From an uncultured Planctomycetaceae bacterium (GTDB lineage Bacteria; Planctomycetota; Phycisphaerae; SM23-33), in the NCBI GenBank assembly GCA_964483755.1, contig CAZADC010000001.1:15158-49318 (forward strand): DNA of 34,161 nucleotides, in the 5' to 3' direction. Within the stretch, counting starts at the first letter, position 1, and every line of letters starts with the position of its first letter. Below are positions 31,244 to 34,161 of the stretch, piece by piece. The notes below the pieces were generated by a model. That model saw only the letters and a list, made by a program, of their open reading frames with translations, was not told the DNA's origin and made no database searches. Position numbers and translations under genes: made by a program.

Positions 31244-31304
31244 TCGTCCGAGCGACGCAGTAATGCGCCGGTCGGCCGTTCGCGTCCGCCGGCGGGCCGG
31301 GCGA

Positions 31305-33242
31305 TCAGTCAGCGTCCTTCTTCGGGCGGACGTGGATCAGTTCGCCGCCGTAGTTCTCGGCGAGCTCTCGCATGTCCGCGACGGCGGCGCCGGCGCGTTC
31401 GCCGATGAGCACACAGTAGAGTCGCAGCGAGTAGGTGTCGTCGGGGTCCATCTCCTCCAGCATCTTGCGGATGTCGTCAAAGCCCTCGGTCTTCCCGTCG
31501 GTGATCAGGAACACCGTGTGGTGCCCGGACTCGTATCGCAGGCACATCGTCACGCGCTCGAATCGGCTGGCGGGACTCTGCGCCTCGGTCGGGCGAATCC
31601 TGTTCACGGCGCTGACGCCCGCTCGAATGGCGGCGTCGAGTTCCTCCTGGTCGCGCAGGTGCAGTCGGTAGTACTCCGAGCCCGATGGCGAGCTGAAGGG
31701 AGCGACGGCGAGTCCCTGCCCGATGCGCAGCTCCTTCAGCGCCTCGGCGACCTCCCCCTTCGCGACGTCCAGGGCGCCGGCGTCGGCCATGCTCGGCGAG
31801 CCGTCGATGAGGAAGTACACCTGCTCGGCCCGGTAGCTTCGCCCGAACAGTCGGATCATGTGGGCCTCGTTCCGGCGGAAGAGGTTCGCACGCTTCACGA
31901 GGACTCCCATGCGCGGCGTCTGGTGGCCGTCGAACAGCAGCTTCGCATCGCTTCGCGCCGGGGCCTCGATTTCGTGGTCCGCGATGATCCCGCCGATGCG
32001 GATGGGCAGCTCGCGCTCGAGCTTCCCGAGATTCCTCAACTCCGTCCTCGTCGCTTCGGCGGTCACGAGGAACCCGTCGCGCGACAAGGCCTCCACGCGG
32101 TACGTATCACGTCCGGGGACGGGAGACACGTCTTTCAACCAGAGGTCCCAAGAAAGGTACTTGCCGTCGAGGTCCGTCTCCCTTCGCCTCTTGAGCGCGT
32201 CACGGTACAGCTTGTTGAAACGTTGCTTCTCCTCGGGCGCCATGGACTGCCAGTGCGGAAGGGCGTCGGGCGGTTCGATGTCTTCGCCGAGCAGCCAGGC
32301 CGCCATCGTGCGCGGGGTCGCGACGGGGCTGTCGGCGATCCTCGCCCTGTATTCCTCGGCGCGCTTCGACCGCTCCGCCGTGCTTCTGACGGGGACCGGC
32401 TGCGGGTAGGTCCGGTGGGAACCCGAGTGCAGGCCGTGGGGCCGCTCGTCCGCGCCTTGGCGAGGGCGCGGTCCGGCGGCTGTCGCCAGTTCGCCGGGGT
32501 CCTTGGGCTGGTCCGTCCCCCGATCGCAGTGGCGGCAGCGGATCGTCTTCGCACCGCCGCAGTAGTGACAGGGCCCGAGGCGCCCGGCCCCCTGACAGCG
32601 GGAGCAGCGGCGCATGCCCTTGTGAGGGGAGTTCTCGCAGTCCGGGCACGGCATGGCGCCGTCGCCGTCGCATCGGCTGCAATCGCCGTGGTAATCCCGA
32701 CCGTCGCCCCCGCACGCCGTGCATTCGATCTCCCCCGCCCCGTTGCATCGCCCGCAGGCGACGTACCCGTTCGTGCAGTGCGGGCATCGCTCCTTGCCCG
32801 TCGCGTTGCAGTACGTGCAGCGCATCCGGCCGGTGTTGAAGCACCAGGGGCAGCGCTTCTCGCGCGTCTCCCGCGGGCGGGTCGCCGCGGCGGGCGGCTT
32901 CTCCGCCAGGGTCAGGCGGGCGCGGATCAGCACGCGATCGGCGCCCGATGGGGACGACTCCAGCGCCTCGCGGTAGCGTTGGGCGGCCGCCTCGAACTCC
33001 CGGCGGGCCAGCAGCCGTTCCGCCTCGTTGAAGGCGTCGAGTCCCGTCCTGTCGATGCGGGTCACGTCGGCGTGGGGCTTGGTGACGGTTCGATCGTCGA
33101 TCTCGAACGTCACGGTTCGATCGGTCGCCGCGGTGATCCGGATGTCCTCGTAGGCAATTCCCCGCACCCACACGGTGTCTGCGGATGCGGCACAGGTTGC
33201 GATATGCAGCACGCATGCCACTGAGAAAAGAGATGTTTTCAC
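31305..33242 (-). CDS. Secreted protein: N-terminal domain + 10x CxxC DnaJ-type zinc-ribbon region + middle domain + C-terminal vWA domain
   Basis: I chose the GTG at 33240-33242, preceded by AAGAGG (plus strand cctctt at 33251-33256). The signal peptide is KTSLFSVACVLHIATCAASA|D. The Cys-rich block lies at ~32520-32860. The vWA MIDAS DGSPS is at 31791-31805 (minus strand), with VFLITDGKTEG later. Confidence 0.7.
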   Translation of the reverse strand: MKTSLFSVACVLHIATCAASADTVWVRGIAYEDIRITAATDRTVTFEIDDRTVTKPHADVTRIDRTGLDAFNEAERLLARREFEAAAQRYREALESSPSGADRVLIRARLTLAEKPPAAATRPRETREKRCPWCFNTGRMRCTYCNATGKERCPHCTNGYVACGRCNGAGEIECTACGGDGRDYHGDCSRCDGDGAMPCPDCENSPHKGMRRCSRCQGAGRLGPCHYCGGAKTIRCRHCDRGTDQPKDPGELATAAGPRPRQGADERPHGLHSGSHRTYPQPVPVRSTAERSKRAEEYRARIADSPVATPRTMAAWLLGEDIEPPDALPHWQSMAPEEKQRFNKLYRDALKRRRETDLDGKYLSWDLWLKDVSPVPGRDTYRVEALSRDGFLVTAEATRTELRNLGKLERELPIRIGGIIADHEIEAPARSDAKLLFDGHQTPRMGVLVKRANLFRRNEAHMIRLFGRSYRAEQVYFLIDGSPSMADAGALDVAKGEVAEALKELRIGQGLAVAPFSSPSGSEYYRLHLRDQEELDAAIRAGVSAVNRIRPTEAQSPASRFERVTMCLRYESGHHTVFLITDGKTEGFDDIRKMLEEMDPDDTYSLRLYCVLIGERAGAAVADMRELAENYGGELIHVRPKKDAD

Positions 33243-33399
33243 GGTTCTTGCCTCTTTGTTCGAGATATGGCTCAGCTCCGCCCGATTTTGCCCCACGGGC
33301 CCCCGACCTGGCTCCTTTATACCGCGCAGATCCATAGATTCAAGCGCACATCCCGCGTTTGGGAAAGAGCCCCGCGCGTCGCCCTGCCGGCCGGCAGGG

Positions 33400-34080
33400 T
33401 CAATATTCGTAATCCTGGCGGACGGGGCTGGGCAGGACCGGGCGGTCGAGGACGATGTTCTCCGCGCCGCCGCCGGTGAAGCCCACGATGCCGCGCCCGC
33501 CGCCGTTGTCGCGGAGGTTGCGCTGCTCGGTGTCGGTCAGCCCGCCGAAGACGTCGCCGAGCCCGGGGTCGCGCTGGTTGAGCAGATGCTCCATCGGCGG
33601 AATGAGGTTGTCGTTGGAGAACTCGCCGGCGAACACTTGCATGCGTCCCTGCGGCGTGTTGAGGTTCCACGTGCCGGTCTCGCCGCTGAGCCCCATGCCC
33701 ATGTCGCCGCTGTAGCCGACCTGTCCGGAGGTGCCCCGGATGCTCGCGACGGCGACCGGGGTGGCCACCCGGAAGTCGTTGCGCCCGGCCTCGCGGTCCA
33801 CCTTGGCGTCGACCGTGCCGTACTTGAGCCCGACGCGAGCTTTGGCGGTGTCGCCCTCCTTGCGGAACTCGCTGATTCCCGCCTTGGTCGCGCTGTTGAC
33901 GGTCACCCGGCCGCGATCGGCGAACTGCAGCACGACCTTCCCGCCGAGCCCGGTGCGGATGATCGTCAGCTCCCCGAGCTCGTCGCCTTCCTCGATGGGG
34001 CGCCACTTTCCCTCGGCGCCCTCCTCGACGGCGACGAGCTTTTGCGCCGGCCCGGAAACCGAAACCACCGTCGCCGTCAT
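33400..34080 (-). CDS. FecR-domain-like protein (probably 5'-truncated by the window edge)
   Basis: FecR-like pattern: GDELGELTIIRTGLGGKVVLQFADRGRVTVNSAT...VGLKYGTVDAKV...DFRVATPVAVASIRGTS. The same frame stays open from 34081 to 34161 (EAPPAEAADARPADDADPVADGLADGA), so the true start may lie beyond the window. Confidence 0.5.
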   Translation of the reverse strand: MTATVVSVSGPAQKLVAVEEGAEGKWRPIEEGDELGELTIIRTGLGGKVVLQFADRGRVTVNSATKAGISEFRKEGDTAKARVGLKYGTVDAKVDREAGRNDFRVATPVAVASIRGTSGQVGYSGDMGMGLSGETGTWNLNTPQGRMQVFAGEFSNDNLIPPMEHLLNQRDPGLGDVFGGLTDTEQRNLRDNGGGRGIVGFTGGGAENIVLDRPVLPSPVRQDYEY

Positions 34081-34161
34081 GGCGCCGTCGGCAAGCCCAT
34101 CGGCGACGGGGTCGGCGTCGTCGGCGGGCCTCGCGTCGGCGGCCTCGGCGGGGGGGGCTTC

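Follow-up and report, generated by a model that had tools for sequence, protein, structure and literature searches.

The DNA analysed here, called the window throughout, is a stretch of 34,161 nucleotides (nt) from an uncultured Planctomycetaceae bacterium, whose genome we refer to as G000. On its minus strand, at positions 31305..33242, it carries a gene whose product, the target of this study, joins an array of ten CxxC motifs (knuckles) of DnaJ type to a vWA (von Willebrand factor A) domain. We are highly confident of the anatomy of this protein, that is, of its domain layout, in which five modules follow one another: a head with SH3-like and TPR-like parts, the ten-knuckle array, a disordered linker, a putative OB-like fold and the vWA domain. 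Sequence comparison further indicates that head and vWA domain each have their paralogue in the products of two adjacent genes of an ExbB/ExbD motor operon. All positions are those of the window, and residues are numbered from the GTG start codon.

A genuine gene with a GTG start

The target gene (31305..33242, minus strand) consists of 645 codons, beginning with the GTG, and a stop codon, as established from the list of open reading frames (ORFs), the translation and a full-length alignment with homologues. The homologues came from an exhaustive HMMER search of 1.84 billion representative proteins, which returned 493 sequences at E ≤ 1e-3, of which 42 also passed E ≤ 1e-10; an alignment of 28 homologues, whose identity to the target is 22-30%, was drawn from the best 150 hits. 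Word-indexed protein searches returned the query alone or a few DnaJ-like proteins, from an index swamped by cysteine-rich and vWA words, and searches for related loci by alignment gave two genome and seven metagenome loci. The homologue loci include one in a Planctomycetaceae metagenome-assembled genome (MAG) and one in a Phycisphaerae MAG.

Counted from its first ATG, the ORF spans 31305..33335 and encodes 676 amino acids (aa). An AAGAGG sequence resembling a Shine-Dalgarno site (33251..33256, minus strand, read from the sequence) lies 8 nt ahead of the GTG, the G+C content at third codon positions (GC3) is 0.87 within the target ORF versus 0.65 in the 31-codon extension up to the upstream ATG, and in the 28-homologue alignment most sequences have their first residue at the hydrophobic stretch. 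Because of these three observations the GTG at 33242 is preferred, and we conclude that the ORF is a genuine gene and the GTG its better start. The original prediction had itself pointed to the rival case, in which translation starts at the ATG at 33335, the hydrophobic stretch stays uncleaved and the product is cytoplasmic; as considered here, this product would be a zinc-finger protein that is either cytoplasmic or anchored in the membrane with its N terminus inside. This ATG is in frame and no stop codon separates it from the GTG. It has no Shine-Dalgarno sequence, however, and both the drop in GC3 and the homologue start points, which bring a small residue followed by Asp into the same alignment column, disfavour it, so that we regard this reading as very improbable. 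On the opposite strand, a 653-aa ORF antisense to the target (31263..33224) was rejected as a gene; it is a high-GC shadow frame, with a GC3 of 0.67 and a G+C content at first codon positions (GC1) of 0.87.

Signal peptide and export

Residues 1-21 (33180..33242, minus strand; MKTSLFSVACVLHIATCAASA / D) form, by a rule-based call, a signal peptide with a short charged n-region, a hydrophobic core of 16 residues and A-S-A before D22. The N terminus reads MK / TSLFSVACVLHIATCA / ASA / DTVWV, with small residues at positions -3 and -1. D22 is at least 90% conserved in the 28-homologue alignment, where the residue preceding it is A, G, S or C, and both the alignment and the AlphaFold2 (AF2) model make it the first residue of the folded head. 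The original prediction had proposed a Sec signal peptide ending at ASA/D, and this proposal is supported, since the n-, h- and c-regions are all present and the cleavage column is conserved in the homologues. Its coordinates and counts for the ORF, the signal peptide, the ten CxxC motifs and the DGSPS motif of the vWA domain were all reproduced from the translation. Neither a twin-arginine motif nor a conserved lipobox was seen in the target N terminus or in the 28 homologues, and a lipoprotein reading of 'IATC' was rejected, as its Cys is not conserved across them. We infer, with good support, that the target is exported via Sec; after cleavage it would be soluble in the periplasm.

A ten-knuckle array related to the cysteine-rich domain of DnaJ

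The array covers residues 129-243 (32514..32858, minus strand) and is of the DnaJ/BSD2 type, as judged from its 20 invariant cysteines, profile matches in the PDB, AF2 and Foldseek results and the symmetry of its spacing. The ten CxxC motifs start at residues 131, 142, 153, 163, 174, 188, 199, 213, 225 and 236 (window 32526-32852) with a period of 11 residues; four of them (CGRCNGAG, CTACGGDG, CSRCDGDG and CSRCQGAG) are exact CxxCxGxG knuckles and the other six are relaxed. All 20 cysteines are invariant across the 28 homologues despite the low identity of these proteins to the target, and the array is therefore not a chance pattern.

Searched against the PDB, an array profile built from twenty ten-knuckle modules matched the cysteine-rich (CR) domain of DnaJ (1exk, E 2.3e-5), EMB2737 (8xku, 3.4e-4), BSD2 (5.4e-4), the zinc finger of DNAJA3 (2ctt, 1e-3), a further BSD2 chain (9ci1, 1.4e-3) and full-length DnaJ (6jzb, 6.7e-3). 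Matches were confined to DnaJ CR, BSD2 and DnaJ-like zinc-finger chains, in agreement with the DnaJ-type nature that had been proposed for the cysteine block. In an AF2 model of residues 22-275, computed from a five-row alignment, the array reached predicted local distance difference test (pLDDT) values of 58-87, and its top four Foldseek matches were all BSD2 (probability 1.0, E 0.026-0.045, TM-score 0.50-0.64, the best being 0.62-0.64 for 6ekb/6ekc).

The Pfam family PF00684 (DnaJ_CXXCXGXG) matched 18 of the 28 homologues across their central knuckles, with a best E of 1.3e-7 and best scores of 32.1-32.2 bits against a gathering cut-off of 32.7; on the target, Pfam gave no PF00684 match at E ≤ 1. 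GRXCR1-2_C, BSD2_CRD (PF25436, 3 of 28) and Anti-TRAP were matched in a few homologues, and neither the J-domain nor DnaJ_C families were found by Pfam in the target or the 28 homologues. G000 encodes a true DnaJ-type domain elsewhere, on contig C555. The ten-knuckle family has no Pfam or NCBIfam model, and no description of an exported bacterial DnaJ-type CxxCxGxG family was found in the literature. An earlier caveat was that the cysteine block might match a well-known family: the relation to the DnaJ-CR superfamily stands and membership in a curated family does not, as all PF00684 scores fall below the cut-off. On this profile evidence, the array is best classed as a remote member of the DnaJ-CR superfamily outside any curated family.

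The module is also found on other proteins. We detected it in 71 of the 251 Planctomycetota genomes sampled, so that exported CxxC arrays are not in themselves unusual in this phylum; of the combination that had been called unusual, only the fusion with a vWA domain is rare (six clusters, see below). In locus L010 an array of the ten-CxxC type is likewise placed behind a signal peptide or membrane anchor, and in L014 and L016 the array and N-terminal zinc ribbons lie on opposite sides of a single transmembrane (TM) helix. Some CxxC arrays have no leader and are located ahead of C-terminal multi-TM regions; the module is therefore used on both sides of the membrane. L024 (G018:C150, 6301-9515) has two paralogous genes in tandem; in the product of each, a segment of signal or anchor type precedes a helical domain (about 330 aa), and the ten-CxxC module forms the C-terminal part, so that it is carried here on a different exported scaffold. 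Three metagenome contigs of a low-GC organism (L016, L017 and L018; for example L016 1109-4279) encode a protein of about 1050 aa with a C-terminal module of six CxxC knuckles, in which the zinc ribbons at the N terminus are followed by a long repeat rich in Ser, Pro and Tyr (YPSPTSAYSSPSNE), a single TM helix, helices of TPR-like type, a small barrel region and the six knuckles; this gene is followed by multi-TM paralogues bearing N-terminal zinc ribbons.

Knuckle spacing suggests a five-rung hairpin

Knuckle spacing was analysed in the 150 best representatives, which hold 124 arrays and 55 ten-knuckle units; the sequences are related and the counts below are hence not independent. Arrays of exactly ten knuckles, at 43 of 124, far outnumber those of any other single size, and six arrays have twenty. 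Of about 1270 start-to-start spacings, 800 are 11 residues long. In 45 of the 55 ten-knuckle units the longest spacer is the fifth, which ranges from 10 to 45 residues and resembles the apex beta-hairpin of DnaJ CR. Among the informative pairs, in which the length departs from 11, mirror-partner spacers (1/9, 2/8, 3/7 and 4/6) are equal in 23 of 115, and direct-repeat partners (1/6, 2/7 and so on) in 2 of 135. Several units are exact or near palindromes, such as 11,13,10,11|16|11,10,13,11; 13,11,11,11|15|11,11,11,13; and 11,16,11,11|14|11,11,15,11. Furthermore, all seven of the long PF00684 alignments in homologues bridge knuckles 5|6.

A mirror-symmetric spacing is what a DnaJ-like hairpin extended from two rungs would predict, and for this reason the statistics suggest that the array folds as an antiparallel hairpin of five rungs, whose apex would lie between knuckles 5 and 6. 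Such a hairpin would probably be stapled by zinc, with one knuckle from each arm in each rung and up to five zinc ions in all. An origin of the array by direct repetition (5+5), or a parallel packing of its halves, is disfavoured by the same statistics.

P0054, P0056 and P0125 carry twenty knuckles arranged as two near-palindromic ten-knuckle units, for example 11,13,10,11|16|11,10,13,11 followed by 11,13,11,11|21|11,11,13,11. In the Phycisphaerae homologue P0015 (L013, 4010-4846) knuckle 6 is degenerate (C...YYSTTRQGC) and the apex insert enlarged, with the nine other knuckles kept; the apex rung therefore tolerates change.

The head, the linker and the OB-like domain

The head starts with a small beta-barrel of the SH3/Sm-like type (residues 22-66, 33045..33179, minus strand), modelled by AF2 with six short strands at a pLDDT of about 90, and continues with three TPR-like helices (residues 69-114, 32901..33038, minus strand; pLDDT 89-96), in which A74, E75, A86, Y90 and R109 are conserved. 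Against the PDB, Foldseek matched the barrel to Hfq/Sm proteins (root-mean-square deviation 1.0 Å over 39 residues, probability 0.99-1.0) and also to SH3 domains and the SH3-like C-terminal domains of retroviral integrases, with E > 0.1 for all barrel matches. The target head matches TPR_11 weakly, and TPR families are matched in the homologues. The models thus depict the head as a small SH3/Sm-like barrel with a TPR-like three-helix unit.

Behind the array, a middle region of about 250 aa had been noted. Our results divide it into a disordered linker of about 85 aa followed by an OB-like domain. The linker (residues 244-329, 32256..32513, minus strand) is rich in Pro, Arg and Gly, variable and gap-rich in the homologue alignments, and has a pLDDT below 50 at the end of the first model and mostly of 38-65 at the start of the second. 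The next domain (residues 330-458, 31869..32255, minus strand) is read as a helix and an OB-like beta-barrel and contains the conserved patterns W..MT..Q...A...Y and G.kV.W.L...DV. PF12869 (tRNA_anti-like) matches 3 of 16 homologues over this domain and does not match the target itself. The second AF2 model, which covers the C-terminal half, was made from a two-row alignment and is of low confidence (pLDDT 53.5), has the topology b1-b2-b3-a-b4-b5, then an alternating beta/alpha fold, and Foldseek relates the middle domain to the OB domains of the class IIb synthetases AspRS, AsnRS and LysRS, of SSB/RPA and of IF1, with E of 4e-3 to 5e-2. An OB-like fold is the best reading of these weak matches, and we use the name in this qualified sense.

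A divergent vWA domain

The vWA domain (residues 470-640, 31323..31835, minus strand) was delimited through Pfam, homologue and PDB profile matches and by mapping the residues of the metal-ion-dependent adhesion site (MIDAS). On the target, the Pfam families VWA and VWA_2 (PF00092/PF13519) gave E of 0.04-0.06 and 14.0 and 14.9 bits, with cut-offs of 23.8 and 27; VWA families match 13 of 16 aligned homologues at E ≤ 0.01 (best 5.6e-14). A C-terminal profile over the last 350 residues, in which the target forms the first row and is joined by nine homologues, was compared with the PDB and matched ITIH4 (1.7e-19), the calcium-channel subunit alpha2delta-1 (6e-15), ITIH1 and CLCA1, and at about 1e-4 integrin I-domains and the vWA domain of the anthrax toxin receptor. 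On profile grounds we take the domain to be a divergent member of the vWA fold.

The DGSPS motif occupies residues 480-484 (window 31791-31805). Four of the five MIDAS positions are kept (D480, S482, S484 and D582), and the Thr column holds Q555, with S556 adjacent. Of the vWA domain with a MIDAS that had been announced, the fold and the DGSPS coordinates were thus confirmed, and a complete MIDAS was not.

A shuffle of recurring modules

About 25 of the best 150 hits share the signal peptide, the N-terminal head and exactly ten CxxC motifs, and they usually add a conserved domain of about 130 aa behind a variable linker. A C-terminal vWA-like domain together with the ten-CxxC array occurs in six clusters among the 28 aligned homologues (the target, P0003, P0007, P0008, P0010 and P0026). 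In P0022 and P0069 the head, the middle domain and the vWA domain are joined without a cysteine array, and P0046, P0051, P0059 and P0098 have only a signal peptide, the middle domain and the vWA domain. On these alignments the target is a shuffle of four recurring modules. Some part of the target protein is matched in 16 of the 24 other genomes of the taxonomic family to which the window belongs. The only relative with the full target architecture is P0026 (646 aa; L021, G022:C244, 2865-6239), in which the metal-site motifs of the vWA domain are lost (DGRSA, VVGAD); directly downstream of it lies a gene for a head-domain paralogue of 468 aa.

Paralogues in a vWA/ExbBD motor operon

Paralogues of the head, of about 350-380 aa, lie in a strictly ordered operon of six genes, encoding in turn a zinc-ribbon/TM/vWA protein, the head (SH3-like) with TPR, ExbB, ExbD, a second ExbD and a TPR protein of about 1000 aa. 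The operon is complete and in the same order in nine genera of the family (L025, L027-L033 and L038; in L025 it spans G016:C25, 6431-13102) and partial in a tenth, where the contig ends (L034). G000, from which the window comes, also has it, divided between contig C268 (L039), with the TM-vWA gene, and contig C243 (L026), with the head/TPR, ExbB, two ExbD and large TPR genes. The TM helix motif MPW/F-V-I-S-x3-H-x-G is conserved in all 11 of the operon vWA proteins examined.

BLASTP aligned the target with the operon vWA protein at 24% identity over 180 aa (E 7e-8) and the target head with the operon head at 38% identity over 55 aa (E 8e-7); within G000 the target is the fourth-best vWA match. 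The head and vWA domain of the target are thus paralogues of the products of two adjacent operon genes, a connection that is new here and that the original prediction had missed. Both are fused in proteins of the target and P0022 types and encoded side by side in the operon, and it is on these grounds that we propose that head and vWA proteins work together.

The sequence features of the operon fit a gene cluster that has been described on paper: in the PVC group, vWA 'force transducers' with a TonB/TolA-like helix carrying an SHLS/His motif, a linker and a C-terminal vWA domain were predicted to work with TolQ/TolR-like motors, with a co-occurring TPR gene (PMC12204202; Mol Biol Evol 2025). 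The operon found here has the vWA gene first, which differs from the gene order in that study. The target vWA domain is homologous to that of the transducers, as the BLASTP match above indicates. Unlike them, the target has a cleavable signal peptide and no motor-binding TM helix with S-x3-H, and its gene is not beside exbB/exbD genes, whereas that of its paralogue in the same genome (C268/C243) is. It also differs from the operon proteins in carrying the ten-knuckle array and the OB-like domain.

The gene upstream of the target encodes a FecR-domain protein with a Gly-rich C-terminal tail (33400..34161, minus strand; PF04773, 1.2e-12); it ends 157 nt upstream of the target start and is cut by the contig end. 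On the other side lies a convergent MlaE/F/D operon, which, like the FecR-domain gene, does not recur next to homologues. The FecR-domain gene is unsupported as a partner, as it is not found beside the homologues in L021, L022, L023 and L012. A GC-rich hairpin behind its stop codon is no more stable than shuffled sequences (z -0.6), and no promoter-like or terminator-like sites were found.

The redox setting of the envelope

Searches for DsbA above cut-off, Thioredoxin_4, DsbB and VKOR gave no hit in G000, nor in any of 18 further genomes from its family. The same searches were positive both in control genomes and in other families belonging to the class, which have VKOR-DsbA fusions. Neither a haem-copper (COX1) nor a bd oxidase was found in G000. 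The gene content suggests an anaerobic lineage without periplasmic disulfide formation, and the source bacterium is probably an anaerobe. Because none of DsbA, DsbB, VKOR or a terminal oxidase was found, reduced, zinc-binding thiols are plausible in an exported protein here. The question of the redox or metal state of the array outside the cytoplasm, which the original prediction had left open, is narrowed to that extent. We also considered whether only lineages that lack disulfide machinery have exported CxxC arrays; this was rejected for the phylum and, as a description, holds only for the target's own bacterial family.

Proposed role and alternatives

Comparative sequence data lead us to propose, tentatively and at somewhat less than even confidence, that the target serves as a bridging arm, soluble in the periplasm and related to the envelope system of the vWA/TolQR-like type. 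Its head would share a docking partner with the operon TPR protein, the zinc hairpin and the linker of about 85 residues would set the reach, and the OB and vWA domains would bind the target of the arm, the vWA domain gripping its ligand by a metal-dependent contact. The hairpin would act as a stiff spacer and not as a chaperone or redox centre. A spacer seems likelier than a catalytic array, because conservation is mostly restricted to Cys and Gly and because proteins with head, OB and vWA domains exist without the array. We regard as doubtful, though worth stating, a more specific form of this proposal: the five-zinc stapled hairpin would be an undescribed extracytoplasmic stiff spacer, the fusion would mean that head and vWA proteins bind each other or a common partner, and the soluble, length-calibrated arm would couple the motor, which is predicted to be proton-driven, to a periplasmic or outer-membrane target.

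Several observations weigh against the bridging arm as we picture it. The target lies outside the motor operon, between the FecR-domain gene and the convergent Mla operon, and no partner gene is conserved beside the target homologues in the loci examined. The MIDAS Thr is replaced in the target, and P0026 (L002), its closest full-architecture relative, has neither DxSxS nor the TDG motif; the subfamily as a whole therefore does not conserve metal-dependent binding. Spacers 1/9 and 4/6 show the mirror symmetry clearly, but in the target subfamily spacer 2 co-varies with spacer 7 and not with 8; the Cys-to-Cys pairing is proposed from spacing statistics. AF2 and Foldseek are weak for the array and the OB fold: Foldseek never gave E ≤ 0.001 and the C-terminal model has a pLDDT of only 53.5. 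G000 is 85% complete, so that the absence of Dsb genes and oxidases from it is not proven, and across the 251 Planctomycetota genomes VKOR is found in 16 of the 71 with the module versus 30 of the 180 without it, exported and other modules being pooled.

Three other readings of the protein have to be set against the bridging arm. By analogy, the ten-knuckle array could be a holdase or assembly chaperone for exported proteins, with the OB and vWA domains holding the client or target. Unfolded clients or assembly intermediates are bound by the DnaJ cysteine-rich domain and by plastid BSD2, and all solved relatives of the array are chains of DnaJ CR, BSD2 or DnaJ-like zinc-finger type. The array is moreover the most conserved part of the family and attached to many unrelated exported proteins. 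There is, however, no J-domain and no periplasmic Hsp70 to which a client could be transferred, the surface residues beyond Cys and Gly are poorly conserved, more in keeping with a scaffold than with a face that binds clients, and the head, OB and vWA domains form a unit without the array. We consider a chaperone role improbable. It is quite improbable, in our judgement, that the CxxC motifs are redox-active, making the target an exported thiol-disulfide oxidoreductase or isomerase in place of the Dsb/VKOR proteins that were not found in this lineage. DnaJ and the plant DnaJ-like zinc-finger proteins LQY1 and CYO1 have been reported to isomerise or reduce disulfides. The lack of DsbA, DsbB, VKOR and Thioredoxin_4 hits in G000 and the 18 genomes of its family, when other families of the class have VKOR-DsbA fusions, would leave room for such an enzyme, and PSA2 offers a precedent for the extracytoplasmic location (PMC7662858). 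Against this, the module is no rarer where VKOR is present (the counts given above), no terminal oxidase was found in G000 to drive oxidation, and 20 strictly periodic cysteines with Gly-rich knuckles characterise structural Cys4 zinc sites, not a thioredoxin-like active site.

The target might also be a surface or secreted adhesin, its cysteine ladder locked by disulfides and its vWA domain binding an external substrate, which we think unlikely. Extracellular Cys-rich repeats are usually disulfide-bonded, a point that counts for an adhesin, and the window also encodes a surface-type protein of 3222 aa. Domains of the vWA type are a typical feature of adhesins, one example being CglB, which takes part in myxobacterial gliding (cited in PMC12204202). 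On the other hand, we saw no outer-membrane sorting signal, conserved lipobox or C-terminal sorting domain in the target, which ends in ...HVRPKKDAD, the searches described above found no disulfide-forming machinery, and the nearest vWA relatives are periplasmic proteins tethered to the inner membrane.

Comparison with known systems and significance

The array shares with DnaJ CR (PF00684, 1exk) its CxxCxGxG knuckles and a long, beta-hairpin-like spacer in mid-array. It differs in having ten knuckles against four and hence five possible metal sites against two, and the protein as a whole, unlike DnaJ, sits behind a signal peptide and has no J-domain, G/F region or C-terminal client-binding domains. 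Plastid BSD2 (6ekb/6ekc/8ilm), the best, if weak, structural match of the AF2 model, is a cysteine-rich hairpin of the kind proposed for the array and likewise stands without a J-domain. PSA2, a J-less DnaJ-like zinc-finger protein, is placed in the thylakoid lumen, a compartment of the extracytoplasmic type (PMC7662858). BSD2 and PSA2, however, are small single-domain assembly factors with four knuckles, whereas the target array is 2.5 times longer and one of five modules. The presence of vWA, TPR and SH3-like modules in envelope proteins recalls the Bat (Bacteroides aerotolerance) proteins BatA/BatB (vWA) and BatC/BatE (TPR, SH3), and this is a resemblance only. In the Bat system the vWA proteins are anchored in the membrane and have no link to ExbB/ExbD, and membership in this system was rejected, as neither a BatA-type N-terminal domain nor any other Bat family was matched in Pfam or NCBIfam.

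Cys4 zinc sites are regarded as cytoplasmic devices. The exported ten-knuckle family indicates that they may also serve in the cell envelope, at least where no disulfide machinery is found, and a five-rung metal-stapled hairpin, if true, would be a new kind of rigid spacer. The function and partners of the vWA force transducers were left unassigned in the 2025 prediction (PMC12204202). As paralogues of the transducer vWA domain and of the operon head are joined in one chain in the target, the protein would be a clue that both act together, and could provide a soluble bait for the ligand of the machine. We see the target as a new architectural variant, whose value lies in the idea of a five-zinc hairpin and in a fusion that may link it to an uncharacterised motor system.

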